A stretch of DNA of 64,000 nucleotides from Rhizaria sp. SCN 62-66 (GCA_001724265.1 MEDY01000004.1:248001-312000); one strand, 5' to 3'. Counted from the stretch's first letter, positions 16,521 to 59,598 are shown. A program made the numbers and translations. The notes: generated from the letters alone by a model not told the origin.

Positions 16521-17167
16521 GCCTGAGAAAGCCCGGTGACGAGTGCTACTCGGCAGAAAGTGGGCACGTTAAGAGTCCCACTCTCAATCGATGGGGCAAT
16601 ATAAAGCTGTCCAAGAGCACGGGACGCCAAGAAACAAACGCTTTGGGTCTACATGTCAAGGAGGGCAGAGAGCGAACGATGATTAATAAGATGGTGTAGA
16701 CCGTGAGGTGAAAAAAGCAAGAATGCACATGAGAGAAAATAGAGAAATCAAACTATACACTTTACGTCATATCCATCTAGCCTTCTCTGGACCTCGCTGA
16801 GGAGCCGTTTCTAGGAAGCTCGCTTTCAGTGAACGTTTTTTAGCCTCCTTCGAACTTTTTTTCGGCCCTGCGCGCTGCCCGTTGCGCTGCCGCGAGAGAC
16901 GTTGGTTTGAGTTGGATCGATCATTGAGGTCCTGGACATATTCCGTCGTCAATAACAATTTATGACATTTGTCTCGTTTTGATCGGGTGTGTTGGAATAT
17001 ATATATTTTTTAGCTCTCTCTTTTGTGTCGTATATATGTCAGATCGAAGTACTTTTTATCCCACCTCAAACAGCTCTCATCAAGCCCAGCATTCATCGCA
17101 CCGTCGCAGTTCCACTTCTTCCCTTCATTCAGTTCCAGCACTACTGGCTGTGCTTTGCTTGCCCGCC

Positions 17168-22290: not shown

Positions 22291-25200
22291 ATGGACAGCA
22301 ACCTGAGGGGGGCGAATGCGCCCCCGCTGTTCCCGGCGCCCGCGCCTGACGGCAACCGACCTTCACAACCGCTTGCACCGCCAGGCCGCGCAGGGTCGAG
22401 TCAGTCGATGCGCGCTGGGCCGCCATACGCCCCAACGCCTTCGTCCTCACCATCTCAGTCAACTCATACAACGCTCATGCCACAGGGCACTTCACTGCGG
22501 TCCCTCCAGAGCTTGCAGGCTGGCTCCTCCATCCCTTCGGCCCTGGGCGGCTACGTGCCCGACTTTTCCGCGCACGGCGCCTCTGAGGCGTCCGACGACT
22601 CGCTATCCTTCCAGGCACATCTGCAGCACGAGTCGCTGCCAGTCTCCCCGACCAGCCGCGGCGTCTTCGCCCACCTGCACCACTCGGCGCGCCCCGGGGG
22701 GCTGACCTCCGTCGTCATCACCGCCGGCGCCGCCGCAGGGGCCGCTGACCGCGCTACTACACGTTCTGCGATGCGTCAAATCTCTGCGCGCGCGCCGCCC
22801 GGCTTTTTCGACCTGCCCTCGCTGCCGCACACTGCGACCACTGCCGCCGCCACGGCTGGCGCAAGCAATGGCAAGGACGCTCTCGCGTGCCGCAGCTACG
22901 ACGACCACCGGAACGTGCCCAGCAACGCGGCGGACAGCAGCAACACGAACCCTGCGGAGTTTATGCTGAGCCACGCGTCGTTGGAGGCCGCGCTCGAGGC
23001 CGATGCGCTCTGCATCGATGGCTCCGCAGCCGCAGCCGCAGCCGCCGCGGCCCCCGCGCACGCCCCCGCGTGCCCCATAGACTTCCCGCGCCCCGCGATG
23101 ACTGCCACCAGCTCCAGCAGCACTGGCACAGGCGCGGGGGCAGGCGTGGGGCATGATGAGGGCGCTGGCGCCAGTGAGGCTGACGATGTGTTCGTCATCA
23201 CACCGCGGTCGCCGATCGTCACCGCGACGTCGGCGGCGGCCGCGCACAACACGGGTGCGTCAGATTACGCGCGGTTCGGCCAGTATGAGCAGTACGGCCG
23301 CGGACCTGGACATCATGGCAACTCCCGCACCAACAGTGGCGACCCTCCCAGCGACGACAGTCTCGCGCTGCCCTTCGACCACCACGTGCACGGCCACATG
23401 CACGTACATGGCCACGGTGCGGGCATGATGTCGTCGTTCCCCGACGACTCGGACGACCACGTTGAGTCGCAATCACGCCCGCAGTCGCACTCTCGGTCTC
23501 AAGTGCGGCTCGCGACCAGCGTCGGGACAGACCCCGATCTGGACCAGCAGCAGTTCGTCGCGACCGCCAACGCCGAGGCCGCCAACAGGGCCATTGCGGC
23601 CGACGCATCCAAGGCGCCCACGCCCGCGTCCGACTCGGCCGGCGCCGCGGGCGCCGCGGCCGGCGAGGCCGCGGGTGGTGAGACCGCCGCACCCAACCTG
23701 GCCCCGGCCGCGCCCGCGTTCGCGGCCGTCGCGCCCGCGCGCGTGGTGTTCGCGGCGCCCAACGGCCACGCGCCCGACGCCGCGATCCTCAAGCACACGT
23801 GCCGCGCGCACGCGCACTGCGCGCCGGGTCATAGACACGAGTCGGTGCGCGGCAGCGAGATGGCCGCGTTGGCCTCGCTCGACGCCGCCGCCGCCACCGT
23901 CGCCGCCACGGCCGCCGTTGAGGACGCCGCCGCAGCCTAGACCGGCTCTGGCGCCGGCGCTCTCGCCGGCAGCTCGGCCACCAGCGCGGCGGTCGCGGCG
24001 GCCGCACAGCTCGGCGCCGGCCCCGGCGGACTCCCGCTGTCACGCGCACTGCCCGTGGCCGAGGGCGACGACCCCAACTGTCTGGCTTGCGCGTTCGCGC
24101 TTGATTGCTCGATGTTGCCCGCCGCAGGCGCCACAGCCGGCTCGGTCACGCTCGCCACGCTGCGCGCCGCCGTCGCCCATGCCGAGGCTGCCACGGGCGC
24201 CGCGGCCGGGCACCTCATCATCCCGGGCGTCGTGCCTTTGCTCCGCGTCCACAACGCTGCGCACGCGCATGACGCTGCGGTGACCCACCGCGCCGCGATG
24301 CAGGACACAACGTCCGCTGCGGGCGCTGGCGAGGGCTCCGCAGTGACTCTGGAGCTGGTCCCGCCCACGGCGGACCCAGTTCACACTGCGCTGGGCCCCG
24401 CGGACCGCTGGGAGTTCGAGGCCGAGGAGCGCGCCGCGGCCGCGGCCTCGGGCCTTGCCGCCGCAGCCGCCGCAGCCGCCACTGCGGTTGCCGCGGGCAC
24501 CGCTTGCGCGCCCGCTCAGGCGCACACGCACGCACTGGCGATGGCGGCGGTGGCCGCGGGGGCGGGCGGGTCGCCCTCGCACGGCGCCTGGCCGGCCGAG
24601 GGTACGCTCAGCAACAGTAACAGCTACAGCTACTACGGCTCCGCCTCGGCCAGCGCCGCGCTCAGCGCCGCGCCCGCCGGTGCCACGGTCCAGACGCGCG
24701 CGCGCGCCGGCAGCGCCGCCGGCTCTACGCCCTACGCCGGGCCCGCGAGCGCCAGCGCCAGCGGCCTGTGCGGCCCCGCGAGCGGCACTGCGCTAGCGGC
24801 GCTGTATGGCAACAACCGCGCTCACCACACGTACTCAGCGGTGGGGTTCCGCCAGCTGCAGCAGCAGCAACAGCAGCACCTGCAGCAGCTCCAGTTTCAG
24901 CAACAGCAGCAGCAGCACCAACACGAGGCCGACTGCGCGGGCGACGACGGGCTCGTGGTGCTGCCGTACGCGCCGACCCCGCCCTACGGCGCGATCGCGC
25001 TCTCGAGCGGCGGGCCCGTGGCATCGGCCGCCACGGGCGCGCTCTCGGCGCTGCACGACCGCTCGCCCTCGGTCACGCCCAGCCTCCACGGTTACGGCCC
25101 CGCGCCGGCGCCCGCGGGCGCGCATCACCACCTTGCGCTCGCGCACTCGCACTCGGCGCTTGCGGGGGCCTCCAGCGCCAGCTCCGCGGCGGGTAACGCC

Positions 25201-28200
25201 GCCCCCGGCGCCGCAGCCGCGCCCGCGCTCGGGCCCGGGCAGCTCTCGGTCGCGCAGGCCGCAGCCGCACTCAGCGCCGCGCGCGTGGAGGTGGAGCGAC
25301 TGGCCCCGCTGCTGCCCGACGTGCGGCCGCTGGGCCCCGTGTGGCGGCAACTTGCCGTCGCGGGCGCCGGGGCGGCCGATTTCGTCCCCCCGCCAGAGTT
25401 CAACGGCGGCGCCGGAGGCGGCGCCGCGGGGAGCTCGCTGCTGCCGACCATCACGAACGCCACTGCTAGCGCCGTCTCGGCCGCGTCGGCCGCAGCGACC
25501 GCCGCCGCGCTGCCGTCCGCGGCCCCACTGCTGCACGGCGGCGCGCCCTATGGCCCCCTGCGCGGACACATCACGCGCATCGGGTCCTACGTGCCGCCGC
25601 GGCCGCTGGGCCCGCTGGACCCCGTCCCGGCCTTCCAGCCCGTGCGCTGCTGCCTGGTCGAGACCTGTGACCTCGAAGCCGTGGTCAACGACTTCTGCCC
25701 TGTACACGCGTTCGTGTCGACCCAGGCACGCACCGACGACGCCGCCGTGCGCCTGCGGGCAGCGCTCAAGGAGGAGGCGCGCGCCGCTGCGTACGCCACT
25801 GCAGACGCTGAGATGAGCGCTAACAACTCTAACACGGGCCTTGTGGTGAGCTACGGCAACAACAACGGGCAGTCACAGCCTCCGTCGGCGCCTGTGCTGG
25901 TGCGTTCGCTGTCTCCCCCGCCTCTGCCGCCGCTGTCCCCGTCGTCGTCGTTGCGGCAGATCTCGCACCACTGGACGCTGCGCGTGTCGGACAACCCCGT
26001 CTACGCGCAGAACGCGTACGCCTTCATCGTGCGCAACCGCGCTCACAGCATCGCCGTGGCCTTCGACAAGCTCACCGGCGCGCTCCGCGTCGTCGTCGAC
26101 GGCGTGCGCATTCTGTCCCGCCGCCTCGACCTCGACGTCGCCGCCCTGCTCGCGCGCGCCCACGGCGTCCCCGCCGCGGCGCCCGCCGCCGTCGCGCTCC
26201 ACGCGCCCGCGCACCTGGACGCGGGCCGCTCGCTGCCCTGGGGCGGCTCGCCGCTGCGCCTCACCGGCCCGCCCCAGACGCTGGCCGCACTGACCACGTT
26301 GCGGCTGCCCGTCGGCGTCGCGGTCACGGCCGCAGCCGACGCGGGCTCCGCTGCGGCCTCCTTCTCCGACGCGGCCGCAGTCTCGGGCGGTGCCTCGAAC
26401 GCCAATGGGGCGGACGCCGCGCCCTGGGCCGCCGTGCCGCGCCTTCTCCCGCGCGCGGGCCCGCGCGGCCCCTCGGCGGCCCCGCTGGACCCAGTGCTGC
26501 ACTTCAACCCGCACGCCGTGGACCGCGCGCGGAGGGCCTTCGCGGCGACCGCGTTGGCCGAGCGCGTGGCCGCCGCTGCCACCAGGGCCAACGACGCCGC
26601 GCTCGTCGCCGCAGCGCTCGCCGCGGCGGGCCACGCGCCCGACCAGACCGCCGCACTTGCGGCGGGCCACGCGCAGCTCGTGCAGCAGCAACAGCAACAG
26701 CAAACTGTTCCGCTGGCTGGCGACCTGTCTGCGAGCGCGTATCCGTCATATGCCGCCTCCGTGTCCCCGTCGCCGTCGCCTAACAACGCCGGCGGCCACA
26801 GCTACAACCCCGCCGCCGCCAACGCGAGCGCCAGCAGAGGCAGCAGCAGCGGCAACGGGCTGTCAGGAGCGATGACGTGGACCGGCGCCGCGGTCGGCGC
26901 CGGCGCACTGCCAGTGTCCGTGGTTCAGATGGCTGAGGCCGCGGCCGCAGTCAACGTGCTGACGTTTCCCTTCGCGTTCAGCCTCCGTGGCGAGCGCACG
27001 CTCGAGACGTCGCAGTGCTGGCTACTGCTTTTCATCGAGCCCGACTCCGTGCTGCCCTCCGTCGCCGCCGCTGCGCCCGCCTTCGCTGCCTCCGCCGCGG
27101 CCGCGAACGCGAACACGGCCGCCAGTACCAGCGCCGCGAGGCTCGGGATGGGCGACGAGCACATCAACGTCAGCGCTGACGCTGCTGCGGCCAACAAGCC
27201 GCCGGTGACTGCCGAGGCCGCTGCCGCCGCCGCCGCCGCCGCCGCCGTGGCCGCGACGGGTGCCGACGCGGTCAACGTGTCCACTGCGCTGCCGCTGCTG
27301 CTGGGCGCGGTGCAGCGCCAGCTCGCGCTGCCCGCCGCGGCCGCCGCGACCTGCGGCGCCGCCGCGGCGCTGCAGCTGACGGCCCCGGGTGCGGCCGCGC
27401 TGCCGGCCTGGGTTCACACCGCGCCCGCCGCCTTCGCTGGGCTCGGCTACGCGCTGCCTGCGGACGGACCCGGCGCCGCCCCACGCGCGCTGCCGTCGCT
27501 GCGTGTGCGCTTCGAGCTCTTTATCGACGACGCGCCCTTTGCTGCGGCCCGCGCGCGCGCGCTGCGCTGCGTGCGCCGCATCGTCTTTGCCGACGATAAG
27601 CTCGTGCACCCCGGCGTCACCACGGCCGCCAACATCGCCGCCGCTGCTGCTGCCGCGGCCGCCGCGAGCAATGCCGCCAGCGCCGCTGCCGTGGCTGCGG
27701 GCCAGTACCCCGGCGCTCCGCTGGCGCCACGCGCGCTGCCCGTCTCGTAGCGCACGGCCGCGGTCCCCGGCGGCGACGGCGGCGACGGCGGCGACTGCAT
27801 CGAGCCCGCGCTGCTGCAGTACCACAGCCACGGCCACGAGGGACAGCTGGACGACGACCCGCTTGCGCTGCCCGCCGCGGCCACCGCGCCCGCCGGCGCC
27901 TCCCTGGCCGGGCGCTCGCGCTCCGTCGTCACCGTGCCCCCGGCCGCCGCACACGCGCATGCACAGGCGCTGGCGCAAGCGCAGGCGCAGGGCCGGATCA
28001 TGGCCGACGTGGCAGCCGCGGCAGGCCCGCTGCCGCCCGGCACGGCCACTCCGGGGACCGTGTTGGCTGCCGTTTCCTCCGCTGCGTCCCACATCGCAGC
28101 CGGTGGCTCCAGTGGCTGGTCCGGCCCTGGCGGGCTCAACGTCTCGCTGACGGCGGCCCCCATGCACAGCGGCTACGGTGCGCAGCAGCAGCACGCGCAC

Positions 28201-31200: not shown

Positions 31201-31223
31201 GACACCGACGCCTACCCGGACGA

Positions 31224-31274
<51 letters not shown>

Positions 31275-33273: not shown

Positions 33274-35452
33274 GGTCGAAAACCGCATCCGTGTTGCCTT
33301 GCTCGAACGCAGATGTGGCCGATGTACGCGCACAATGTGTTTGGACAACGTCGGTCCCCTGATTTGTCTTTTGAAAAGTACAACGTGTCTTTATGTTTGT
33401 CTTATCAACTAAGCTTTGCTTTGCACACGTGTCTCCCAACTAACCAAAGATGCACTGCAGTCTTCGCATCACTCCTCATCTTACGCACGCCACACAGCTT
33501 GCGCTCACGAGTCTGACACACATCGTGCACAATCAGCAGGTGCACTCGCGCACTGACGCACACAACAATAACAAGCTGGCGTGAGTGTCGCGGGCCCGCC
33601 TGTCTGCGGTTCGGCGGTGACAAAAAGTGATTGAACAACACGCCGCGCATGTCGGTGTTTGGTGTTCGTTATTAGTTGTCATATAGTTGGACAGCTATAT
33701 GTTCCTTCTCTTCTCATTTATCTTTTGTTTGTCCGTTTGTACTAATAGTTTTTTTTCTGAGTTTGGAATTAGTCATTAGTAATTTCGTGTTATCTATATC
33801 AATCCTCTTTTTTATGTTGCCTCCTCTAATCTTGTGTATTTCCGTCTCCTATTTTACCGTGTTCCTTTTTTGTTGTGTTCTTTTTCTTTTCATTATCCTA
33901 TTGCATCGTTCTTGTTCGACTTTGTCGGTTCACCGCGCTTACACCGTTTCGTCCGTCGCTCCCTTGACACCACACACCATTATGTCTCGCGTGCCTGTCT
34001 TGCGCTGTCTCTTTACCTTTTCTCCTTCACTACATTCATCCTGCACCCTGTTTTATCCTGATTGTCAAACCACGTTCTATCACCTGACCTTGCTCGGTGC
34101 TGCGCAGGGCCTTCGTGCCGCCTGTCACGAGTGCGTGCTCACGCATCGAGCTGTAACAGCGATGGTGCAAGCGCGGGGACATAATGCCGGCCCACTGCTC
34201 TCTACAGCGGAAGTGCCTCTTTGTCCCCAGCACGCAGCACGCGCTGCGCTGGTCGTGTGGATCTTGCGGTTCTTGATCAGGGTGGACACAGAAGGACTCC
34301 TCTCTCCTGGCACGATTGGCCTCAGTGTCGTTGTTCTTGTCTTATCGCTGTCTGTTTCCTTTTATGTGTGTGCTTTTCGCTGTGTTTTTAACGCGTTACA
34401 TGTACCGGTATACTTCGAGCGCTACTTAACAAGATCCCGTGTTTTAGCCTAATCATATCATGTCATGTTTCTCGCTCCGACTAACTCTCATCTGTCTTGC
34501 TTGTGAGACGAGCTTGGCACTGAGGGTGGTGTGGAGTAATAACAGATGGTTTACTGGTCGAATGTTAGCGGTGTCTCACTTTCGTTAACACTGACGTCTT
34601 TTGTACCCAGCCAACAATATCATAGTCACATTCAAACTCTCGCTCACGCACACAGATGTGATCACATTCGAAGTCCAACTAATTCTTTCCTCCATCGAAA
34701 CTTACTGTCACGAATCCTCATAGCACTACTAAGCGTTCCCTCGACTCCTGAAGTCGCGCTTGCTGACTCGGCGTACGGTGCTTCATTTGCTGCGTTGAGC
34801 AGTTCCAACATTGCTTACTTTTGCGTTCGCAATCATGTTGACCGTGAAACGACGCAGCTGATCGTATGTCAGCAGCCATTCAACCACTTGTTCGACCACC
34901 AAAGTCACATCCTTCGCGACTGTATCAACAACCTTCACACTCACCAGAGAAAAACAACTCACATATCGTAAAGATTTGCTCAATTCCGACAAATTAAATA
35001 TTAAGAAGACGAATATTAATACACTTCACGTTTACAACCATTGGACGTTCGACGACGCTAAAATCGAGGGATGGTTGTTTCGTTATTGAAAGAAGGGAAA
35101 CGCCACTCAGAACAAAACTTGGTGTATGACTCTATATATTATATTGCACGCAAACAACATGTCAGCAAGACAGTAAGATATAACGATCAGAACAGGATGG
35201 CAGTCGAGTGTGATACAACAAGCGCAAGTGTCGGTATGGACTCACAAAGAAACGTCGGAGTTAAGGACAACAAAATAACATTAGATCTGCAAAAAATAGT
35301 CAAACAATAACAAAAGCACTAATGAACAAAACAAAGAATAACAGAACAGCAGAACATCATAGTGGCAGTCAAACAAGCGCCGTGACACAAATGTGTGGGG
35401 TACTAGAGTGCAGTCACCCCATGTGATCGCAGCTCCACGCCTCATCAAATGC

Positions 35453-36835: not shown

Positions 36836-37402
36836 GGTGAAATGCGCCGCTGTAGTAGGAAACAAATCGATAGTCGTAATGGCGGTTGAAACAACAAAGT
36901 TGATTTACATGTGAGAGTGATTTGTTGCAAGTGAGGTGGCGACGAAGGGGGACCGAAGACGTGTGGGAAAGATTTCCTCCAAACTGGATGTCAAAACAAC
37001 GAATCCCCAAGGTATAAAAAGATGGCAATACGAAAGAAACGGCAAACTACTCGTGAAGCTATCATCAATCCATTAACACGATGAACTCATCGAAAATATT
37101 GACAGATAAGTTAGCTCGTCGTTCTGTCTCCGTCATCTCTCCCGAAGAAGGAGAAGACGAGAGTAGTGTATTAACAAAACCGGTGACTGTCCTCAGTTCT
37201 CACAAAGTGTGTAAATTTCAGTGTGGGATTATCGCCAAACTGACTGTTGTGTACATATTTGTAATCTATGTGTGCTTTTAACTCCATATTGCAACATTAA
37301 TTTTCAAAATAGTTTGCATATCTATCGCAAAGTCCGATCGCTCACCGCCCATCTTTCTATCCGTTGGCTGGCATCACCCCAATCATGTTAACAGCTCCTT
37401 CC

Positions 37403-39517
37403 ATGTCTTCTAGCCGTCTAGAAGCGACCCTGGCGCGCGCAAGTACTCTTCTTGCGCGCGCTGCCAACTCTGACTGGCCACTGATTGTTGCTGCGACGGG
37501 TGAGTCCGTCGCAACAGTCCCACCTGGCGCCATCAGCGAGCTCCCCACAGTCCGCGAAGCCACTGCAGAAGAAGTCCGCGTCTACCGCAAGTCTCTCACT
37601 GCCACAGCGGCCTTTGCCGAGAGCGCCGCGATGTCGGCCGTGCGCGCGCTGCCGTCGCCGCCCGCCACCTTCGACGACGCCTTGCTATACCTCGCCACGG
37701 CGCTCGTGGTCCCGGGTTTGCCCGCTCTCGGCGCGCCCCAGGCCCTCTACGGCAAGAATGTCAAGCACAACAACAGCGAGAGCAGCAGCAGCAGCAGCGC
37801 GAGTGTTGCCTTGCCCGTAAGCGTGCCGAGCCCCGCAGAGGTCGAGGTTGCTCTGAGCAACGCCGCCGCGGCTGACGAAGACGTTGACGACGACGATGAC
37901 AACGACGATGATGATGACGCAAACGACAACGATGAAGAGGAGGACGACGAGCACGACCCCGACCTCCACGACGACAGCGAGGAGGCCCGCGCACGCTTCG
38001 GCCGCAAGCGCGCGCTGCGCCCGCTGTTCCGCCTTACGAAGCGCGCGCGCCGGACGTGGGCTGCGCGCGCGCTCGACATGCTGCAGTCGCACCGCTCGCT
38101 GGCGCAGTCGGCTGCGGCGCTCGCGCGCGAGCTGTCAGTGTTGCAGCAGTTTGCGCTCGACGGCGGCGCGCTGCTGGCGGACGCCGCGGCGGAGCCCTCG
38201 ATCTCCGCGCGTGCGCTGGCGTACTTCACCGTGGTGCGCGAGCTCGGCCACGCGGGGCTGCGCGAGATGCAGCTGGCCACGCAGGCCGCGCGACCGGACC
38301 TGCACGCCGCCGTGCAGGCCGCGGCGGCGCGGCGCGACGAGGCCGCGGCGGCCGTGGCGGCGCGCGCGGCAGCGCTGGCGGCGCGCGAGGCCGAGATGGG
38401 CGCCATGGAGGCCGTACTCGGCGACGCCGCGCGGCTGCGGCGCGACTGGGACCGCGCGCGCGCCGACGCGGGCAAGAGCGAAGAGGCGGCGGAGGAGCTG
38501 CGCGCGGCGTGCGCGGCGCTGCGAGCTGCTGTGGCGAGGGAGAAGGCACGCCTGGACCGGCTGGGCGAGGCCGCGCGTGGCGCCGAGGCCGAGGCGCGCG
38601 GCAAGGAAGCTGCCGAAGCGCGGGAGCTCTGCGCAAGGCTCCGCGCCAAGCGGGACGAGACCAGGGCTAGGGTTGCTGTTGCACGTGCGAAGCTGAGCCA
38701 GAGCAGTAACACTGCTGCTGTTGACACGAGCTTGATGTGCGAGGGCGATGTCTCAGTCATCATTCCCATCACGACCGACCGCAATAACGACGAGACCGAG
38801 AACAAGAGCGGCGGCGCTGGTGCTGCAGGGTCGAAGCGGCTGAGTGACGGCGAGAGCTTCGCGGTGAACGGCACGGGCGCCAGCACCGGCGGCAGCGACA
38901 GCGTTGTCCGCAGTCTAGGCCTTGACGACGTCGACGCGTTCCTAGACTCCGACGCCGAAGACAACGCCAACACAAACGCCAACGTCGGCAAGGCGGGCGC
39001 CGCGAACACGAGCGTGGCCGAGGCGGACGCGTCGCTGCTGCTCAATGTGAGCGTCAACGAGAGCGTGGATCCCGCGACGGCGGCTGCCGAGGCCGAGGCG
39101 CTGGGCGCGGAGGCGAGGCGCGCATGGGCGGGGCTGGCGCGCGCGCAGGGGCAGGCCGCGGCCGCCGGGGTACGTGAGGCCGCGCTGCGCACGCTGCTGC
39201 GCGCCGTCGCTGCCACTGCGGGCTCAGCTGCGACTGCGAGCGCGACTCTGAGCGCGAGTTCGAGTGAGAGTCAGGAGAGCGCCACCGCTGCTGCGGCGTC
39301 GGTAGCAGTGATGTCTGTGCTCGCGCGCGGGCCGACACTGCGCAGCGCGGTGTTGCGGGAGGTTGCTGCGGCGCGCAGTGTGGCGCTGGCGGCGGGCAGG
39401 GCGACTGTGGGTGCGGCTGAGTGGTTTGATGCAGCTGAGAAGGCAGTTGCAGCCCTGGTTGAGAGTGGTGTCATTTCGACCTCTGGAGACGCACATGACT
39501 ACTTGCTATCGATTTGA
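37403..39517 (+). CDS. Hypothetical protein with acidic tract, long central coiled coil and small C-terminal helical domain
   Basis: GC-rich ORF with a D/E tract at about 37875-37980 and a heptad-like A/E/R-rich region at about 38320-38700. The start could be ATG 37385 or 37403. Stop is TGA. Confidence 0.7.
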   Translation: MSSSRLEATLARASTLLARAANSDWPLIVAATGESVATVPPGAISELPTVREATAEEVRVYRKSLTATAAFAESAAMSAVRALPSPPATFDDALLYLATALVVPGLPALGAPQALYGKNVKHNNSESSSSSSASVALPVSVPSPAEVEVALSNAAAADEDVDDDDDNDDDDDANDNDEEEDDEHDPDLHDDSEEARARFGRKRALRPLFRLTKRARRTWAARALDMLQSHRSLAQSAAALARELSVLQQFALDGGALLADAAAEPSISARALAYFTVVRELGHAGLREMQLATQAARPDLHAAVQAAAARRDEAAAAVAARAAALAAREAEMGAMEAVLGDAARLRRDWDRARADAGKSEEAAEELRAACAALRAAVAREKARLDRLGEAARGAEAEARGKEAAEARELCARLRAKRDETRARVAVARAKLSQSSNTAAVDTSLMCEGDVSVIIPITTDRNNDETENKSGGAGAAGSKRLSDGESFAVNGTGASTGGSDSVVRSLGLDDVDAFLDSDAEDNANTNANVGKAGAANTSVAEADASLLLNVSVNESVDPATAAAEAEALGAEARRAWAGLARAQGQAAAAGVREAALRTLLRAVAATAGSAATASATLSASSSESQESATAAAASVAVMSVLARGPTLRSAVLREVAAARSVALAAGRATVGAAEWFDAAEKAVAALVESGVISTSGDAHDYLLSI

Positions 39518-40046
39518 AAACTCAGTATAATGTGAATCTATGTTTATCTTATTGTTTGAGACCGGTATATTTGCTAGATGGAGTGGTTCTGTGCTGAAAA
39601 TAACCTGAAGATGATGCATTCGGTTGTTTTGCTCTTGCGCGTGGCACAGGAGAGAGCTTCGGTTGATTGTGGTTGGAGCGACAAAAAGGTGGAGAGAGGG
39701 TCATATTATCGTTAACTAGGGATATCGTTTCTTAATATAGAGTTTAATTTTCATCAAATGAATGAAAATCATATTTTAATTATCATATTCGATCTCCAAA
39801 CCAACGATCCAGACCTGCTTTTCAATCCTTGGTTGGCTGACTCAAGTTGAGATTCAGTTCATCCAACTGCGTTCTGCGAGCAACTCACGCTCGTTAGTTC
39901 GCAATGCCACACGGCTCAGGAATATTTCCCTATGTACTCTTACATCATGCTTGTGAGAAACGCATTGAAACCCTCACCAACCTTCTCAATATCCTTTCCC
40001 CTGTTGCTCTGCCCGCTTAACACGTTCACTCTTCCAAGAAATACAG

Positions 40047-40332
40047 ATGAGCGCTCCTGGCGGTGGCTACAACCACGGCTACCCGCCCGCGGCCGGCTAT
40101 GGCGTGCCTCCCTCTGGCCCTCCTTCTGGTCTATACGGCTACGACGCCCTCGGCCCGCCGCCCGGCCGCGGCAACAACTGGTCCGGCTACTCCTACGGCC
40201 CTCCCTCCGGGCCCCCCATGGACGGCCCGCAGCAGCCCTACTACGCGCCAGCGTATCCCCCGCCGCCCTCACAGGGCTACCCGTCCCCGCAGCAGTACGG
40301 CGGCGCCCCGCAAACCAGCTCCAGTAGCAGCT

Positions 40333-40363
<31 letters not shown>

Positions 40364-42026
40364 CGGCGGCGGCGGCAGCAGCGCGCCAGAGCACGCGCTG
40401 TCACCACAGGCCGAGCGCTTGAATCTCGCGCACGTGGCGCTGACGTCGAGCGGCCAGCGCTACAACAGTCCCGACAAGCTTGCGCACGACCTCGCGGACC
40501 TGCTGAGCCCCGGCTCGGGCTACTAGCTCGTGACGCGCGCCGTTGTGCTGCCGCTCGACCAGTACGGCGTGGGCGGCACCCACGCGCCCACAGTCATGGT
40601 CGGGCTCGCCACCGTCTGCCCCGGACGCGCCGGCGTCACGCCCACGCCGCTGGGGATCTATTTCCCGCCCGGCTACCCCGCGCAGGCGCCCTACGTTGTG
40701 GTCGAGCCGCTGCCGCGCCAGCGCCTGGCGTGCAACAACGCTATTGCACCTGCCACGGGCGCCGTAAACCTCAGGTACCTGCAGCAGTGGGACGCGCGCA
40801 ACAGCACGCTCAGCGAGCTCGTCACCTTCGTGTCCTCGCTCTTCTACTCAGCCTCGGGCGTCGAGGGCGACAACACTGGCGGCGGCAACGGCGGCGACTG
40901 GGGCCGCGGTGAGGCGGCGGCGGGCGCGGGGGTCACCAGCCGCAACAGCGCCGTCCGGCAGCCTCCCGCCGTCTCCGCGGCCCCGCTGCGCCCCGGCACT
41001 GCGGGCACCGGCACCGGCGGCACCGGCATCGGCGGCGGCGGCGGCGGCGTGGAGTCGGAGGACGAGCAATTGGCAGTCGCGCTGTCGCGTTCGCTCGCCG
41101 ACGTGAGCCTCTACTCGTCCGTCTCGAACCTCTCCACCCACTCCAGCGCCAAGTACGCCGTCCCCGCCTCCAGCTCGGGCTCGAACGCTGGCGCTGGGTC
41201 GGGCGCTGGTTCGGGCCGAGGCATGTTTGCCACTGCGTCCGACGTCGCCATCCCGGGCCCCGCACCGCTCTCCACCCGCAGCGGCAACCTCGGCACCACT
41301 GGCGCGGGCGCGGGCGCCAAGCTAAGCGCGGAGGACGAGGCCGAGCGCGCGGGGCTGGAGCAGATTGTCGCCGTCAAGGCCGAGACTGCGCTCAACGCAC
41401 ACGCGCGCGCCGCCACGGCCGAGGCGCAGGACCTGGCCGCCGCGGGCCGCGCGCTCGCCGCCGTCGCCGCCGCCGCCACGGCCGCTGCGCGGGCCCGCGA
41501 GGACGCCGCGGGCGCGCTGGCGTCCGCGCAGGCCGGCGCCGACGCGCAGGTGCGCGAGCTGCGGGCCTGGGTCGCTGCGCACGAGCAGGCCCTCGCCAGC
41601 TCCAACACCACTGCCAGCGCCAATGCAGCAGGCGCCAAATCTGCCGCGGGCGGGCCGGACGTGAACGCGAGCGTGGCGTGGGGCGACCCGATTGCGGCGG
41701 CGCTGGCAGGTGCGGTGTGCGACGACATGGCCGCCGAGGACGCGCTGACTGCGCTCGACGAGCTGCTTGAGGACGAGTGCGTCGACGTCACCGAGTACCT
41801 CAAGGAGGTGCGCAAAGTGGCCAAGCAGCAGTTCCTTGCACGGGCCGCGCAGGGCCGCGTGGCGCAGGTGCAGCGCGAGGCGCTGGCCACGCAGGCGCGC
41901 GTGCGCGAACAGATGCGCGCGCAGCAGCTGGGAGGCCCGGGCGGACAGGGCGGACAGCTGCAGGGGCTGGGGCAGGGGCAGCAGGCTGGGGCGATGCCGG
42001 GGCAGGGGCAGTACCAGATGCGGTGA
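40047..42026 (+). CDS. TSG101: ESCRT-I subunit Vps23/TSG101 (Pro/Gly/Tyr-rich N-terminus, UEV domain, UIM-like motif, coiled coil, steadiness box), 659 aa reading through TAG 40524-40526
   Basis: UEV: YNSPDKLAHDLADLL..GY*L...PLGIYFPPGYPAQAPYVVVEP...GAVNLRYLQQW...STLSELVTFVSSLF. Steadiness box: DDMAAEDALTALDELLEDECVDVTEYLKEVRKVAKQQFLARA. The two listed ORFs are in the same frame and separated only by TAG-CTC. Stop is TGA. Confidence 0.88.
40323..40381 (+). repeat. (AGC)n(GGC)n coding microsatellite (poly-Ser then poly-Gly) in the TSG101 N-terminal extension
   Basis: Direct inspection of the sequence. Confidence 0.8.
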
Positions 42027-42477
42027 AGGAGTGATGCGCGTGGAGATATATCAATGACAACGCAGGGCCAGAGATATGGCTTGATCATGATGGCACGATC
42101 ATTATATCGTGAGCCCTTTCAATAGACTATGACTTTTCGCTTCGAAGCTCTTGTAGAAATTGTAAACTATCACACTTTTCTTCGTTTTTTCGACGATAAG
42201 CTTACTCCAGCTTCCGATCTGGATCACTGAAGACGATATACTCGACTAGTATTTTGCTCGAACTTCTACTAGTGACCATGGAACATCGAAAAGCGAGGTG
42301 AGAAACGGCTCTAAATCATCAACAGTTGTGGCATGTAGAATCCGTTGTTGGGAAAATCATTGAACTATGAAGTGATTCCTAAATCAAATACCATAAAAAT
42401 TATTCTTGCAAACGCTCTACTTGTGTACCTCTTTCTGTAGACCTCGTTAAAGCTCTGTTGTCTGACACTTCGCAAAC

Positions 42478-45400
42478 ATGAGCCAGGCGAACGTGGATCC
42501 GTCGCCGATGGCGCCAAGCATGTCGCTTTACGAGCCCCGTGCGCGGACTCTTGCTCCACCCACGCTTGATGTAACGAAGTCCTCCGCGATGTCCTTTCAT
42601 GGCCCCGAGCTGCCTCCCAACTCGTTGCCTTTCCTCCCTGCTGTTACACCTCGCTCTTCTCGAGTCCTCTCCACCTCATCTGCCTCTGCCGCTGCCGCTG
42701 CAACTACAAGCACTCCACGTGGTTTTAGTCTTAGTGCACGGGGCACGCTTGCTCCCGCTGGTGCGGGTGTGGTTGGCGCTCAAAACCGCGGAACGTCCCT
42801 CACCCGCACGCTCACTCGCACCCAAGGCGTGGCTGGCCGCACACTGCGCGACTGTTTCCCGAACATGCCCTTCAGTCCCGAACTCGACACCCCACTGCGC
42901 CCCGCCGACCTCGCCGCGACTCTCCCGCTTGTTCTCACTACCGGAAGTGGGCTTGGCGCGAAGACGGCTACATTTGCGCTCTCCAGTGCGCCACACGCAC
43001 TTGCTGTCGAGCCCTCCCCGTTTCCCCTTCCCTCTGCGCCTCTGACCGCGACGGCGACGCAGACACGGCACGACAACGCGACTGCGCTGCGCCTCGCCAC
43101 ACAGTACGCCTCAGCGCGGGACCAGCTTGCCTCCAGCACGATGAACAGCGCGTTCGGTCTCCTCGGCGGCGGCGGCAGCGGCGGCGATGCGAGCGTGTCC
43201 AGCGTCGGCCGCAGCGCGATCCACGCGCGCCTCGCCACCGCCGTGGCCGCCGCGGAGGGCAGCGACCCGTACAGCGCGCCCATCGTGGCCAGCGTGCTGG
43301 GCCTACCCACGCCAGCCGCCATCGCACAGCTCCCGCTGCCGTTTCCGCCCCCGCGCCTCGTCTTCGTGCCCGCCGACGCGCTTAACAACAGCGGCGGCAG
43401 TGCGAAAAGCTGCGCGAATGCGCACAGTGCGGGCCTGAGCGCGGCCGCTTGCGCCGGGCTTGTGCAGGGCGCGGGCGGCGTTGCGGGCCACTGGGAGTGG
43501 CGCCAAGCGCATCCGCTCTACCGCACCGCGACCGCCGTGCACTCGTCCGCGCCTGGCCAGCTGCTCGCCGCGGTCGGCGTGACGCCCCTTGTGCACTGGT
43601 TTGCGCGCGTGCACCTGTCGGCCGTGCAGGGCGCGCTGTGGCGCGAGGACGCCCCGCTGCCCGCGACCGACACGGACGCGCTGCTCGCGCTGCTCACCCT
43701 CAGCCCGCACGCCGCCGCCGCCGCAGCGGCCAACGGGGCTCAGTCAGAGTCTGGGTCTTTTGCCGCGGCCGACAGTGTGAGCGCCGAGGCCGACGCGGTC
43801 GTGGAGAAGCTGTGCCAGGTCGCGTTTGAGTCGCTGTCCTCGGTCCTCGCCGCGCGCGCCACGGGTCCTGCGGTCGGCGCGTTCGCTGCGTTCCTCTGGC
43901 GCACGTGGAGCGCGGTGCTCGCCCGCCGCGCGGATCGCCGCGTCGCGCACGCCGTGGCCGTCGCCGCCGCGCAACTGTCCGCGCAGTCCGAGGCGCTACT
44001 CGCCGACGCGCGCGCGGACGCCGCGGAGCTGCGCGTGAGGTGCGCCGCGCTCGACGTTGCCGTGCGCGTGGGCGACGCGCGGTCCGCGGCGCAGCGCGGC
44101 TCGCTCGCGCTAATGCACAAGGTCGACGCGGCGAGTGCGGCGGACCACGCGCGCATGCAGCTGCGGCAGGCCGCTGCCGTGCGCACCGCCGAGGCCGACA
44201 CCACGACGGCGCGCGCGGCGGCCGCGACGGCGGGGCAGCGCGCCGAGGCGCTCGCAGCCAAGGCCGCAGCGCTCGAAGCCGAGCTGGGCCGCGTGCGCGC
44301 GGCGCGCGACGGACTGGCGCGGCGGCTTGTTGCGTGGCGGCGCGCCGTGCACGCGTACGTGCAGTCCCCCGCGGGGCTGTCGCCGGGCATCCTGCGCGTG
44401 CTGGCCGTGGCGCCAACCCACCAGCCCGCGGGCGCGGGCGACGCGGTCGTGCTCGACGGCGCTGCGGCCGGAATCGCCGGCGGGCTGCCGGGCGGCGCGC
44501 TCACCGCGGGTGGGCCCGCTGTGGACGGCAAGATCACCGTCACGATCAGTCCGCGCAAGGCGCAGCCGTCGTCGGCCTTGATGGGCGCCGCGACGGCGAT
44601 GGGCATGACAAGCGCAAACAGCACGAATGCAGCCTTTAGCGTGAGCGGACTGTTGCCTTACAGCGCGAGCAATTCCCAGAACTCTGGTAGCTTATCGGCT
44701 TCTGCGCGCGCCCCGCTGCCGTCGCCGTCTCACGCGCTGGCCCAAGGCGCTGCTGCGGCGACGCTGGCCGCTGCCACAGCACCCGGTGCGCCCCTCGCCC
44801 CGGCGCTGGCGCGACTCTCCGCGCGCGAACTGGCCGCAGCGGTGCCATCCCTGTACGAAGTGCTGCGCGGCGAGTGGGATGAGGAAGCTATAATTGGGGA
44901 CGGCTTCGGTGTCTACAATACTGACAAGGCCACGCAGACCGTTGCGGCACCACAAGACCCTGGTGCGCTATGGGGACAGCTTAACTTTGGCGACGCCGAT
45001 AGTGATAACAACAACAGCAACACGGATTTCTGGGGGCAGCAGCAGGCGCCGGCGGCGGGTGCGAAGGCCGGCTCGCTACTCCTGCAGAGCCCTGTGACCG
45101 TGTTTGGGGACATCGAGGACGACGACCGGCGCGTGCTGTCATCGCGCGACGCGAGCGCCCGCGCCGTGGCGTCCGTCACCGCAGCAGGCTCCGCGGTTGC
45201 GAACCGCGCCCGCGGCAGCGGTGTGGCGCGTCCTCCGAGCGGACATGACAATCACCGGCCTAACAGCAGGCAACGGCTCAGCCGAACCAGCACTGCCACT
45301 GGTCCCCCCACGACTTCGGCCTCGAGCTCGAACGGCATTCCTAACAGCAACAGTAACCCGAGCAAGCCTACGTCGCGCTCCGGCGCGCGCAACGGTGCCA

Positions 45401-48400
45401 CGTCGTCTCCCACCCCCGGGCCTGGCCCCGCGCCGGTGCCCGTCTTCGTGGGTTCTCCTGTGAAGCTCACTGTGGACGTGAACGCCGACAAGGCTTGGCG
45501 CAGCGGCAGCGCGCGCAGGGGCCGCAGCGCGGGCCGTACGCATCCCGCGGACGCGAACGCAGTGGCCAAGGGGCGGGTCGGCAGCCCTGACGGCGTCGTA
45601 GCGCAAAGTGTGACTGGCAGCGATGCCGGCGACGACAGCTACGCGATCGGCGCTGCGCCGGAGCTGGTGTCGCCCAGGTCACTGGCGAGCCCGGTGAGCA
45701 GCAGCAGCACGGCCAGCGCCGCCGTTGCTGGTGCGACCGCTGCCACTGCAAATTTGGGCGCGGGGTCACGGAATAGATCAAATCACACGAGGTCTCCGTC
45801 AGTGTCTTCGCTCGCGGCTCCCAGCAGCTCGAGCGCGCAAGGGCACGGACAGGGGGCTGGGTTTGGCGCGCGGCCGCCGCTGTCGCCGTCGCTGTCGCTG
45901 TCTCCTTCGGCGCGGTCTAGCACCCGCAGTGTGGCGCGCCACTCGAGGCAGTCATCGCACCACGCCCTCTCGCACTCGCACGCGGGCTCGCTCTCCCCGC
46001 GGTCCCGGGCCGCCGCCGGGACAGGAGCGGGGAGCAACGGCGTGGCTGTGACGGCAGCGGCCGCCGCAGTCGCCGCACGGACGTTCGGTCCGATGTTATT
46101 CGGGGTTCCCGATACCAAGCCGACGGCTGACGCCACGTTCACCGCTGACAACTCCGATGACGTGAAGAACTTTGCGCATGCGCCGGTTGCAGTCTCCGCA
46201 TCTGCTAGCAACGGCACCAGCAGTGGTGCGCTGGCCGCGGCGGCGGGTATGCACGACCTCACTGTCGCGCAGGCACCGGACGGCTCGATGTGGCTGGCCC
46301 TGCCGCCTGCGGCGACTGCGGCAACTGTTGGCGCCGCCGCTGCTGCGCTGCGCGGCGCATCTGTTCTTGACAACTCCAGTGTGGTGTCGGTGAGCATGAC
46401 TCCAGCGGACGCGGTGTCTCGTCCGACCACCAGTGGAAGCATGCGCCCGCAACAACGGCGTCAGTCTCATGTTGTCGTCAACAGCCACGTGCCTCGCTCA
46501 CTCGCCTCATTTCTCACCCCCAGCGCATTACACGCGCTCTCTGCGCAGCACATGCAGCAACACCTCGTGCACAGCCGTGCCGCGGCGCTGACCCCGCCTG
46601 CGCTGTCCCGGTTGCTGCGCACGCTGCTGCGCCAGGCGCTCGGCCACCGCGACGCAACCCCTGCTGCCGCCACGCTGTCAGTCGCCGCCGTGCGCGCGCC
46701 GCCGCCGGGCACTGCTGCTGCGGCCGCGCTCGTCCCTGGCCGCGCGTGGGGCCCCGTGCGTGTTGTCGCTGCCGCGGACGCTGCCGCGCGTCGGCACGCG
46801 CGCCACCGCTCGATCTGCACGTTCAACGCATTCGCCGCATCCGCACCCGGCAGCCCTCTGGCCGCTGGAGTGGCCAATGGTCGCGGTTTTGTCCCTGTGC
46901 CCGCCATGACTGCCCCTGCCGGTGGTGATAGCGGCGTGCTGCGGCTAGCGACGCGCATTGTGTTTGCGCCTGCGACGCCCGCGATTGGTGAGTTCTTGCC
47001 CTTACGCTACCTGATTGTCTCCGGTGGCGCTGTCCTCCCTGCTCTGCGTGCGCTGTGTGAGCACGCCGCCGCCGTGGCTACCGCGGCCGCTAACGCCGAG
47101 GCCGCGGCGGAAGCTACGGACGGACGCGAAGTGATGTCGGCAGCTTTGGCCGCTACTCTGCTACCACGACTCTGCGCGCGTTATTTGGACGAAACACTCT
47201 CGCCCGCCGCCGTCAAGGCAGCGCACAGCACGATGTATGCGGCTTCTCCGGCGCTCCCGGGCTCGGCTGCTGCGATCAACGCTGCTGCTGGCGCTGCGCT
47301 CGCCAGTGCCGCGCTAGCTCGTGGTGCTCCGCTGCCGCCGCTGCGCTCAGCCTTTGCGGCTGCTGCTGCCGCTGAGGCTGCCGCGGCTGCGGCAGGCTCC
47401 GCTGTGGTGGGACGCGGTGGCGGCGCTGTGCGTGGCATGTCGCTGCAGACGGAGTCGTACTCGCCTTCGCCTATGTCGTCTACAACGTCATCTTCGTCGG
47501 ACCTTTTTGCAAATGCCGCTGCAGCTGCAAAGGTTCGTTTGCCTATTCCAGTGGCGCCGCCGCTTGAGTCGCTACTGCTGTCGTCGCCGCCCCCGTCTGC
47601 AGCGGCGCACGGTCCTCGTGGCGCTGCAGAGCGGTCTTGGCAGTTCTTTACGCGACTCTGGGCGGCACTTGATGCACCCGACGTTGTCCTTAGCAACACT
47701 GGCAGTGACAATTCGTCACCGAAGGGTGCTGGTCGACTGCCGCCCTGGGGCGATTTGCCCTTCACTGCTAGTGGCGCTACTAGCAATAGCACGGGCAACG
47801 CTACAGCACCTCGTGAGCCGACGCTCGCGCTCGTTCTATCGAACGCTGTAACAGGACTTTCTCTCGCTTTCTCTGGTGCTAGTACTGTTGATGCAGATGT
47901 TATTCACACTGCGTCGATGCGCCTTGCGCGCGCGGAGATGCCTCTGCAGCCCCCGGGATCAAGCTCTTGTGCGAGTTCTGCCGCAGATGCGGCGGTGGCC
48001 ACTGCGGCTGGCACACTTGTCAACGGCGTGCTGCTGCGGTCCTTGTGGGCTTTGCCGTCGCCGCCAACGTCCACGCGCTCCCGTCCTCTTGCCAACGGCC
48101 CGAGAGCTGGCGCCCCGGCGTCCGAAGCGGTGCCCGAGTCAGCCGTGCCTTGTGAGGCCGTGGCGATGGTGCTGGTCGACGTGTTCGAGCTGCTCGACGC
48201 CAGGGTGCACTGCAGGTGGGTGCGGCGTGCGCGGACTCACCTGGTCGAGTTCCTTGCGCTGAACAATGCGGTCATGAACAATGGCAATGCTAACTCGAAC
48301 GCGAAAACTCCCAGTCTCGGTCACAGCAACTCACGCAGTGAAGAAGATGGAGGCGATGAATGCGAGATTGACGATTGGACTGAGGACACTGTTCCTGCTG

Positions 48401-49350: not shown

Positions 49351-49592
49351 CAGCAACAACACACAAATGATGGTTGAATTATGAATGTCAAATTATGAAT
49401 GTCATGGTTGAGTTGCATGTACTTCGACTATGTATTGTATGAAGCGAATATTAGAATTAGAGTAGATAATTGGGGCTATATAAAGGTATTATATAATATT
49501 ATATAACTATGAAGAATACAGACTATAAGATTCATGATTTTTCAACGCTTAGTTGCTTGTTGTCGCATGGTCTTGCGACCGTCACAATGCCG

Positions 49593-52500: not shown

Positions 52501-55500
52501 TGCAGAGTGACACTGCAGTTGCACCAATGGCTGTTAGTGTGGCGAACGAAAGCACAAGTCCCAGCACCATCGCTGCGCCGTCGAACTGGGTCCACTGCTG
52601 CCTGAACGCACGCGCCACGCGATCGTGCCAGTGCGACAGCTCGAGGATAGATTCTTCGAGCTCGCGCTCCCAGTGAAGGGCAAACCTGCGCTCTGCGGCA
52701 GCAAACGCAGTGTTGAAATCAGCAGACGCAACGGCCGCACGCGCGGCTGCAGCGTCGTCATCAATAGTAATACTGTGCGGAGTTGTCGGTTGGCGCTGAC
52801 TTAGGGCGAGAGTGGCGCAGAGTGACTCAGCAGGCGCCAACGCACCATCTGCAACCACAGCGGCGCGGGCAAGTGCACGCACTGCTGACGCGCGCGCGTC
52901 TGCAAGCACTGCGCGCGGAAACGAGCGCGCGGCAGCCGTATAGCTCGCAGTGTATCGCAGCACCTGGAGCAGCGTAGTGCGGTGCAGGGACAACACGGAG
53001 AGTAGAGAGCGATAGCGCGTCGCGGCGGCAGTGACAAGCGCGACATCCACGTCGGCAGCACTGTCATGCGAAACGGACTTCGGAACACTCATGCTGGTTA
53101 GGGTCATATTTTGCGCGTTGTTGCGAAGCACGCGTGCCACCAAAGGGCACAGTGGCACCGTTGCAAGAGCGGCTCGTGACGGTGTCGGGACGTAAGGCTG
53201 CGCAACGTGGCGGAAAGCAGCATCCCTATCTCTGCTGTCAGCGTTACTCGTAATGCGTTGCTTCTCCTGTGACGGCATGAGAAGATCCGCAATCGGCTTG
53301 CCCAGCGAGCCAAATGGCACTGGAAGACCGAGTAGCAGCGACAGCGTTGGCACGATATCAATTTGGCTCACCTCTAGCGCAGCATCAGTCGCGGACCGCG
53401 GAATCGGCGGTTTCTTCGCGTGGCTATCATAGTTAGCAATATTGACAGTGTGTCCGTCGTCCTGATGCTCACAAATACCGAGTTCGCAGTCAACATGTCC
53501 AGAGCCACTCTCACGGTGAGTCTCGGACTCGTGCTCCCAGTACCTGTGCTTGTGAGCGTGTTTTGTGCGCAGCCCCTGCAGAGGCACCGACGAGTACGCC
53601 CACAGCCCCGCGTGCGTCTCCTCCGCGCTGCCGCCGCCGTGGTTGCCACCTCCGGTCATGCCGTGATCGCCCATCACAAGCAGCAGCGTGCGGCCATGCT
53701 TCGCGCGTGCACGGCCAGCACTGCGCGTTGATGTGTCCTCAGATAGAACCCGTGGACAATGTGTGCGGCGCCAGCCACCCATAAGGCTCTTATCGGCCAT
53801 GTTATTGCGCTGATCGTCACGGTCATCTGCCAGCTCCTCTGCCACTGCGTCAACATATTCGATGAGCCGCGCAATGTCTGCGTCGACCTCGCTAAGCTTA
53901 GCCGCCATGCGGCTGTGAGCCGGGCCAAACCGGTGGCCAACGTGGTCGACACCAAGCATGTGCGCGACAATGAGACCCCATCCCTGGTCGTCATCGGTCC
54001 TCGTGTTGAAGGGGTCGCTCCAGAGAGGGTGCTCAGGCCCCCAGCCTTGCAAACGCAACAGCGTCCCTGTTGAAGCGGCATCAGCCTCAGCCTCGGCAGC
54101 GCGGCCCTGAACAAGGGGCGCGGTGAGAAACGACTCAGAGTCCATGTCGCCGCCTGAGACCACTGACTGGGAATGTGATTGGGAATGCGAAAGTGACCGT
54201 GGCAGTGCGTCCCCGCACAGAGCACGGCGCAGTCCGCGGCGGGTGCCCGCGTCCACTGTGTCCAGATCGGCCACGTCAAACGAGGGATACGGCTCGGAGC
54301 GCGAGAAGTGGTTCGGGAACATCGACATCCACGTGTCGTCGCCCACGAAAAAGCTGCGCAAAGTGCGTCCACATTGACCGCAACCGTGTAGAGCGGGCGT
54401 GTGGCTGTGTGGCGCGGGTCCAGACTAGCTGGCCTGCTCACAGTCACTCGCACGCTCGCGGTCGCCCGCCAGGCACTGACCGTGCTGTTGTTGTTGCCGC
54501 GCAAACGCCGCCGCGAGCTGCGCCGGCCACGAGTCGTCGCCCACTGCGGCCGAGTTGAAGTTGCGGCCGATGTCGAGGAACGTCGGTAGCCCGCCCGTGG
54601 TAAGGCCCTTAAGCCGCTGCATCGTAACTGTGGGCGCGTCGGCGACAAAGCGGAACAGGCGCGACCGCGCCGGCTGCATAGCGAGCGCGCGGGCCACGCT
54701 CGGGAGCTTGTTAGCCCAAGCAGGCAGCGGCGGCGCAGTCACGTTCCCATCACGAGTGCTGCTGTTATAAGAGCTGTCACCGTGTGTGTGTTGTGCTCGG
54801 GGCTCCTGGTCGGCGAGATTGTGAGTATCTTTGTCTGAGCGAGACTGTTTCTGCAGCTCTAGTTGAAGTTGCTGCTCCTGTGTGAGAGCGGTGGCGTTGG
54901 GAGCGAGGAAATCGAACCGTAGAGCGTCGACCATGAGAACGATCACGCGGTCGAACAGGCGCGGGGACCAGCACGACGTGCTGTCACCGTCGGCGCCGCA
55001 ACCGGCGTTGTCGGGGGAAGAATGTGAGCAGGAGCTCGACTGGGCACATGTGCGGACAGCGTCTGTGTCCAGACGTGCTTTTGTTGTTCGTGAGGTTGGG
55101 TGGCCTGAGATCGCGTCAAGAATAGGTGTGGCTGCAGGGATATCTGGCAGGGTAGTATGGCGTCGTGCATTCGCATCATGAGAATGTCCTGACTCTGCTG
55201 TGTCAGCAACAGTGGACGCGGAGTCAGAATGAAGCTCAATTGAACTGTCATCAAAGAGCGTTGTCCACTGGGACGGTACGGAAGATATCTCACATGTCGA
55301 AACATCGGGAAGCTCATATCGATTAAGGAAAAAGCCTATGGTAACATACAGAAAAAAACTCGGCCAATGTATGAGTGTACGACAGAAATTAGAGAAAGTT
55401 AGACATTCAAGACAACGCGTGTGTGGAGACGAACCTGTGATGAAGATATAGAGCGCAAAGGTTTGGGCTGCAAGCAACACCAGCACAAGACGACATATTA

Positions 55501-55603
55501 TGTTTCGGGGTTGTTGCGTGGGAGATGGCGCGACGCTTGGAGCAGCAACGTCGATGTGTGACGCGACGGGGGAGACCCGACGTCCAGAGGAATCGTCTCT
55601 CAT
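49593..55603 (-). CDS. PIGO: GPI ethanolamine phosphate transferase 3 (PIG-O/Gpi13), 4 exons (55603-55435, 55335-50307, 50186-49874, 49724-49593), about 1880 aa reading through TAG 54427-54425
   Basis: Motifs GFFLNRYEL, VIVLMVDALRFDF, FVADAPTVTMQRLKGLTTGGLPTFLDIGRNF, FFVGDDTWMSMFP, PYPSFDVADLDTVD, AHMLGVDHVGHRFGPAH, MGDHGMT.GGNHGG, VSQIDIVPTLSLLLGLPVPFGSLG, FYATGH and RRHLMVWAVFAPKF. Three introns with GTTCGT, GTACGT and GTAAGT donors restore the frame. Stop is TAA. Confidence 0.93.
49725..49873 (-). other. Spliceosomal intron 3 (PIG-O)
   Basis: CAC|GTAAGT...TTTTCAG|CGG gives LH-RRHLMVW. Confidence 0.88.
50187..50306 (-). other. Spliceosomal intron 2 (PIG-O)
   Basis: GT|GTACGT...AAATAG|C, AT-rich, phase 2. 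Confidence 0.8.
55336..55434 (-). other. Spliceosomal intron 1 (PIG-O), 99 nt, in frame and stop-free
   Basis: ACAG|GTTCGT...CCATAG|GC. Removal gives the conserved ITGFFLNRYEL. Confidence 0.8.

Positions 55604-59567: not shown

Positions 59568-59598
<31 letters not shown>

Follow-up and report, generated by a model that had tools for sequence, protein, structure and literature searches.

In the organism from which this DNA derives, the codon UAG is most likely a sense codon, and UAA and UGA remain as stops. The window, by which we mean the whole 64-kb stretch of DNA that was analysed, has four in-frame TAGs in three genes, one of them within the UEV domain of the ESCRT-I subunit TSG101/Vps23. 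Domain structure and coding signal continue across these codons, TAG-containing sequence was recovered from an RNA library and from other strains, and TAG terminators are absent from the window. From these observations we infer the decoding of UAG, the identity of its amino acid and the accompanying changes in tRNA and eRF1. UAG would be decoded as an amino acid across nuclear genes, with UAA and UGA as the sole terminators, and the TAG of Vps23 would be an ordinary, if rare, sense codon for the first residue of the UEV strand β-1. The full 659-residue ESCRT-I subunit would be made by reading UAG, presumably by means of a tRNA with the anticodon CUA and an eRF1 that no longer terminates at this codon.

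The window consists of eukaryotic nuclear DNA in which coding regions of 60-78% GC are separated by AT-richer spacers. Its sequence originates from bioreactor, wastewater and activated-sludge samples, and the organism, which has few introns, is an uncultured eukaryote without a close relative in the databases searched. A total of 12 genes were counted, six of which, including the Ala-rich 3,660-codon ORF, have no Pfam family (Table 1). Two spliceosomal introns are evident, one of 131 nt in the exportin-like gene and one of 195 nt in the STE20-like kinase gene, both on the + strand; they start with GTACG, end with CAG, and have a GC content of 0.33 and 0.52, respectively. The latter intron links the kinase domain to an 825-codon ORF that was at first taken as separate. 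The TOR kinase, of 3,856 residues, exceeds the usual length by a factor of about 1.5, contains long insertions rich in Ala and has no in-frame TAG. Two TAA-ended ORFs on the + strand, 33814-34452 and 34546-34971 (212 and 141 amino acids, no Pfam family), are located within a spacer of about 52% GC and perhaps form a single small intron-containing gene. A protein atlas search with the product of the orphan gene at 37385-39517 gave no usable match. Neither ARAGORN nor Rfam detected any tRNA gene in the 64-kb window, which also lacks genes for eRF1 and for the ESCRT-I partners Vps28, Vps37 and Mvb12.

Table 1. Coordinates of the named genes, the in-frame TAGs and the Vps23 domain features in the window.
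Feature	Coordinates	Strand	Details
TOR kinase	311-11881	+	
Exportin-like gene	17036-20322		intron 18710-18840
Ala-rich ORF	22291-33273	+	3,660 codons, 75-78% GC, no Pfam family
In-frame TAG	23938..23940	+	GCC TAG ACC, 3,660-codon ORF
In-frame TAG	27748..27750	+	TCG TAG CGC, 3,660-codon ORF
Predicted Vps23/TSG101 (ESCRT-I)	40047-42026	+	659 codons + TGA, one in-frame TAG
UEV domain region	40380..40916	+	residues 112-290, spans the TAG
In-frame TAG	40524..40526	+	Vps23 codon 160; in the model, UEV strand β-1 starts here
Pfam UEV match	40641-40841	+	PF05743
Vps23 core ('steadiness box')	41685..41846	+	PF09454, E 2e-12
Predicted PIG-O/Gpi13 (GPI ethanolamine-phosphate transferase 3)	50285-55603	-	1,772 codons, one in-frame TAG
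In-frame TAG	54425..54427	-	AGC TAG TCT, PIG-O/Gpi13
STE20-like kinase	56646-60352		intron 57722-57916
UFD1	60786-63353		

The reading frame of the Vps23 gene begins with the ATG at 40047, includes a single in-frame TAG (40524-40526, codon 160) and ends with the TGA at 42024-42026, and the peptide around the TAG reads, just as the preliminary description of this DNA gives it, ...DLADLLSPGSGY-TAG-LVTRAVV.... Read-through of this TAG joins 159 and 499 codons. The UEV family PF05743 was matched with 34.9 bits (cut-off 27) by residues 199-265, which correspond to profile positions 49-114 of 121, and the Vps23_core family PF09454 with 47.3 bits (cut-off 26.8) by residues 547-600. Both matches are located downstream of the TAG, and a Pfam search with the pre-TAG pieces by themselves produced no match; the first 48 positions of the UEV profile, which remained unmatched, fall by offset on residues at either side of the TAG. 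A HMMER search of 1.84 billion representative proteins with residues 112-290 (E <= 1e-3) produced 49 matches. One of these was the window's own post-TAG product, and 21 of the other 48 continue unbroken across the TAG position, the best non-self match having 33% identity. Two alignments were built, a first one with 19 of the 21 TAG-spanning homologues (P0021 and P0036 were left out) and a second one with 25 homologues. In the numbering in which the TAG is position 49, residues Y28, R33, D37 and L41 before it and the next residue, L50, are either invariant or conserved to at least 90%. A profile made from the second alignment, i.e. the window sequence and the 25 homologues, matches the human TSG101 UEV domain with an E value of 5.5e-43 and sets the TAG column against the D of the human Y-K-D-L.

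An AlphaFold (AF2) model of the UEV region (pLDDT 82.2, pTM 0.77) has two helices before the TAG, at positions 9-24 and 31-42, and a strand at 49-56, corresponding to β-1, that starts at the TAG residue itself. When this model was compared to the PDB using Foldseek the top match was the TSG101 UEV domain (E 1.3e-7, target TM 0.78), and the yeast Vps23 UEV domain was matched with an E value of 1e-5. As both the alignments and the model place the TAG within the UEV domain, termination at this codon would split one folded domain. It would leave a 159-residue stub, and the next ATG (M184) lies beyond β-1. With a UEV domain, a predicted UEV fold across the TAG and a Vps23 core all present, the gene is, on sequence and model, a predicted TSG101/Vps23. 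The preliminary description of this DNA had located the TAG within the UEV domain, in the Y-x-x-L turn, with a helix region before it and the β-strands and the steadiness box after it in the same frame, and had held that termination there would destroy the protein; each of these points agrees with the alignments, the profile matches and the model.

Two other characteristics of the protein can be mentioned. As we read the first alignment, the segment GAVNLRYL is found opposite GxVYxPYL of the homologues, which would put an Asn at what we take to be the position of the E2 active-site Cys. The UEV domain is preceded by about 110 residues (40047-40379, + strand) that are rich in Pro, Gly and Tyr and include a Ser run, with an (AGC)n repeat at 40321-40388; the proline-rich region of TSG101 comes after the UEV domain.

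The 3,660-codon ORF is composed of ORFs of 549, 1,269 and 1,840 codons in one frame with TAGs alone between them. In the PIG-O gene, read-through of the TAG joins 392 and 1,379 codons. Its alkaline-phosphatase-type catalytic domain (PF01663) was matched with 33 bits (cut-off 23), and of the 441 homologues found at E <= 1e-5 many carry the name PIG-O/Gpi13. Invariant blocks are located before the TAG (VDALRFDF and FVADxPTVTxQRxKGxTTGxLPTFxD) as well as after it (FxGDDTW and HxLGVDHxGH), and the TAG itself is in a linker of variable length between invariant catalytic blocks. Judging from the catalytic domain and these conserved blocks, the gene is a predicted GPI ethanolamine-phosphate transferase 3. 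Two more TAGs, at 56546 and 56564, were considered as coding and rejected, since the kinase gene has them in its AT-rich 5' leader.

The joining of long ORFs by TAG read-through in three genes is more than chance. Read-through of TAA or TGA lengthened coding-frame ORFs at their ends only and joined no long ORFs. The 12 genes terminate in TAA (six) or TGA (six) and none of them in TAG, and no other ORF with coding signal in the window ends in TAG. TAA terminates half of the genes despite a coding GC3 of 0.7-0.9. The 100 nucleotides that follow the 12 true stops have a GC content of 0.27-0.53, and those that follow the four internal TAGs one of 0.62-0.83; the GC1/GC2/GC3 phase is unchanged across each internal TAG. 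In-frame TAG is found four times in 17,456 codons, or 0.23 per 1,000, as compared to 27 per 1,000 for CAG, and from codon counts we put the share of random coding changes that make a TAG at about 1.4%. If TAG were expected to account for 15-35% of terminators, the probability of finding none in 12 would be 0.006-0.14. With a sample of 64 kb, 12 genes and four TAGs these statistics are weak one at a time, and the case for UAG as a sense codon stands on the agreement of several lines. Recoding of UAG had been proposed in the preliminary description, with the Vps23 site as the strongest single one; the three further in-frame TAGs and the lack of TAG terminators point in the same direction.

Four sequencing runs were compared to the window over 38500-56000 in the form of assembled contigs. 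Run X5 is a polyA metatranscriptome, X3 is DNA, X7 is labelled cDNA though classed by the software as probable DNA, and the type of X4 is unrecorded. An X5 contig spanning 40389-40666 and an X7 contig spanning 40389-40790 align to the window without gaps and keep the TAG. Their sole difference from it, 40426 T>G (Leu127Arg in Vps23), is common to both and serves as the marker of a second strain. The colinearity of the two contigs indicates that the Vps23 TAG is unspliced and unedited and that it occurs in a second strain and, outside the source study, in two others. The RNA evidence consists of contigs at a depth of 2.9-5, and the compared stretch is without an intron and hence without a splicing control. 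X5 had zero depth in mainly intergenic bins, in which X3 and X4 had a depth of 4-8, and this fits real RNA. An X3 contig covering 52388-55725 has no differences from the window, showing that independent DNA has the PIG-O TAG as well. Among the pieces listed, the Vps23 TAG is covered by X5 and X7 and by neither X3 nor X4, and the PIG-O TAG by X3 and by no RNA run; these gaps are a matter of coverage only.

These results bear on two explanations that place the TAG outside the translated message. Sequencing or assembly error is hardly credible when the Vps23 TAG is found in contigs of two other studies and the PIG-O TAG in an independent DNA run, and when an identical 498-amino acid post-TAG product is called on five contigs; nothing specific speaks for such an error apart from the nearby (AGC)n repeat (40321-40388), which breaks the contigs of other runs. 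It is very improbable that RNA editing or the splicing of an unusual in-frame intron takes the TAG out of the mRNA. Introns do occur in this genome (18710-18840 and 57722-57916), and homologues lack the insertion that contains the PIG-O TAG, but the two evident introns start with GTACG and have a GC content of 0.33 and 0.52 against 0.62-0.83 around the TAGs, and the X5 contig from the RNA library is colinear and unedited over 40389-40666. In-frame GT..AG introns with five types of donor (GTACG, GTAAG, GTGAG, GTATG and GTAGG) were tried around each TAG and rejected, as every candidate would remove conserved residues. The preliminary description had noticed no AT-rich intron or GTACG-type donor in the vicinity of the Vps23 TAG, and none was seen here.

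The possibility that the TAGs are true nonsense mutations, in pseudogenes or in decaying alleles of the assembled population, is one that we consider quite improbable. By mutational opportunity TAG accounts for 62-64% of the nonsense changes in the GC-rich coding sequence of the window, and the probability that four of four would be TAG is therefore about 0.15-0.17; furthermore, all four sites are weakly constrained, as decay might have it. Against this, there are no frameshifts, TAAs or TGAs in the 17,456 codons (the absence of the two stops in frame follows from the definition of an ORF), the codon phase is intact at either side of each TAG, and three of 12 adjoining genes would have to be defunct although the genome is compact. 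A second strain, marked by a linked SNP and found in two other studies, has the same Vps23 TAG, the region of which is present in the polyA RNA library. No intact Vps23 paralogue was found in the protein searches (word index and HMMER); the word-index search with the UEV region returned only the window's 498-amino acid post-TAG product. Strain differences in PIG-O are synonymous in four of eight cases downstream of the TAG and in one of seven upstream, a difference that is not significant; the downstream figure is consistent with constraint on the part of the gene that follows the TAG.

Readthrough under the standard code, in which near-cognate tRNAs would pass UAG in a leaky or programmed manner and TAG would be avoided as a terminator without formal reassignment, is improbable. 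The four TAG sites are poorly conserved, being found in a variable alignment column, a variable linker and low-complexity runs, where insertion of any amino acid by low-level readthrough would also be tolerated. The great rarity of TAG (four in 17,456 codons), its restriction to positions tolerant of any residue, and the lack of a tRNA(CUA) gene in the window, itself devoid of any tRNA gene, would all suit it. However, three of the 12 genes would need an inefficient process to be expressed, and two of the three are conserved housekeeping genes; the four TAG contexts have no motif in common and a known readthrough motif is absent from them; none of the 12 terminators is TAG; and a CAG-to-TAG change between strains resembles the exchange of synonymous codons.

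This last change was found in run X4, in which a C>T transition at 39272 turns a CAG (Gln 630 of the gene at 37385-39517, + strand) into TAG at 39272..39274. It rests on one X4 contig (39112-39918) with eight differences in 807 bases and a depth of 4.98. Of the 54 strain differences, 40 were classified, and 28 of these 40 are in coding sequence. The 39272 CAG/TAG difference is possibly a synonymous change that segregates between strains, and such a swap is what would be expected of a synonymous Gln codon. The other indication of the amino acid comes from the Vps23 site, the sole alignable one of the four for this purpose. Among the 25 homologues the TAG column has Thr in eight, His in eight, Asn in two, one each of Gln, Tyr, Ala, Ser, Gly and Asp, and one gap. 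It is polar and never Leu, which favours a polar residue over Leu, as the preliminary description had expected; Gln is found in one homologue of the 25. A single alignable site is too little to name the amino acid, which on this evidence may also be Glu. Taken together, the CAG/TAG polymorphism and the polar alignment column suggest that UAG probably codes for Gln.

A related view is that UAG has been captured very recently, or is still ambiguous, in a deep-branching, GC-rich eukaryote without sequenced relatives, for which we see an outside but real chance. UAG would be already gone from gene ends and just appearing at tolerant positions, at 0.2 per 1,000 codons, brought in by CAG-to-TAG transitions that still segregate between strains. 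If so, the window would be a natural snapshot of an intermediate stage of stop-codon reassignment, taking place under GC rather than AT pressure.

The matches to the TOR kinase have at most 63% identity and belong to many unrelated groups, and two long environmental TOR sequences (P0056 and P0080) are no closer to it than a chytrid TOR is. In a tree of PIG-O the window sequence groups solely with environmental sequences, on long branches. The best named homologue of the UEV region is from a diatom, which is a hint only. A metagenome scan with the Vps23 product gave 596 pattern matches and no confirmed one. A scan with the PIG-O homologue P0184 led to the environmental contig L001:1-23330, which carries a PIG-O homologue, has a GC content of 52% and is not from a close relative; it has dense long ORFs that end in TAA or TGA and none joined by TAG, and is uninformative on the organism of the window. 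Gene calling with the standard code splits or shortens the genes of this organism. The databases carry just the 498-amino acid post-TAG piece of Vps23 and a 1,286-amino acid piece of PIG-O, and annotation and phylogenomics of the lineage will be wrong until its code is set.

At the level of the protein, the predicted Vps23 resembles human TSG101 and yeast Vps23 (PDB 2f0r, 7zlx, 3r3q and 1uzx) in having a UEV domain, a long linker and a Vps23 core, with target TM values of 0.77-0.80, and differs from them in the approximately 110 Pro/Gly/Tyr- and Ser-rich residues before the UEV domain and in an identity to homologues of about 33% at most.

Nuclear codes in which UAG alone has become a sense codon are known. 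Two reports on such codes that keep UAA as a stop describe two cases outside the ciliates and a few within them, and see in them a break with the supposed coupling of UAA to UAG (PMC5304391, PMC11687900). In the fornicate Iotanema spirale UAG codes for Gln and UAA and UGA are stops, and in the rhizarian exLh (Sainouroidea) UAG codes for Leu (PMC5304391). Among phyllopharyngean ciliates, UAG is read as Gln by Hartmannula sinica as well as by Trochilia petrani and as Leu by three TARA lineages that have a tRNA-Sup(CUA); UAG usage is widespread in the phyllopharyngeans, and UAA is the preferred stop in ciliates with reassigned UAG (PMC11687900). Condylostoma and the karyorelicts have codes in which stop or sense depends on context (PMC11687900). 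In the literature, supplementary files aside, we found no report in which UAG is reassigned by a GC-rich eukaryote of wastewater or in the nucleus of a stramenopile.

The window fits the pattern of NCBI table 15, the Iotanema type, with UAG in conserved genes, retained in an RNA contig and not used as a terminator. As in Iotanema, UAG alone has apparently been taken over, the UAA stop is kept and Gln is the likely amino acid; unlike Iotanema, the organism is GC-rich (65-78%), intron-poor and from wastewater, its UAG is much rarer, and its tRNA, eRF1 change and amino acid are putative (PMC5304391). With exLh the window shares a non-ciliate origin, UAG as a probable sense codon, UAA and UGA as stops, and a derivation from mixed-organism sequence data, whereas Leu would fit neither the Vps23 column (none of 25) nor the CAG/TAG polymorphism (PMC5304391). 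As in the phyllopharyngeans, UAG alone appears to be reassigned and UAA is a frequent stop (six of 12 here), but UAG is found at 0.23 per 1,000 codons as opposed to widespread use in those ciliates, and the Leu of the TARA lineages is disfavoured at the one alignable site of the window (PMC11687900). In our judgement the composition of the window and its long, intron-poor genes are not ciliate-like. As in Condylostoma and the karyorelicts, one codon could serve as both sense and stop, and a stage that is early or ambiguous would be in keeping with how rarely UAG is used here; unlike them, the window has no TAG gene ends, and in-frame TAA or TGA does not occur in it (PMC11687900). UAG-alone nuclear codes are rare, and a further case would bear independently on the way in which such changes begin. 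What sets this one apart is the organism, with about 70% GC, few introns and no close relative, together with its very low UAG usage, the pattern of the code itself being already known.
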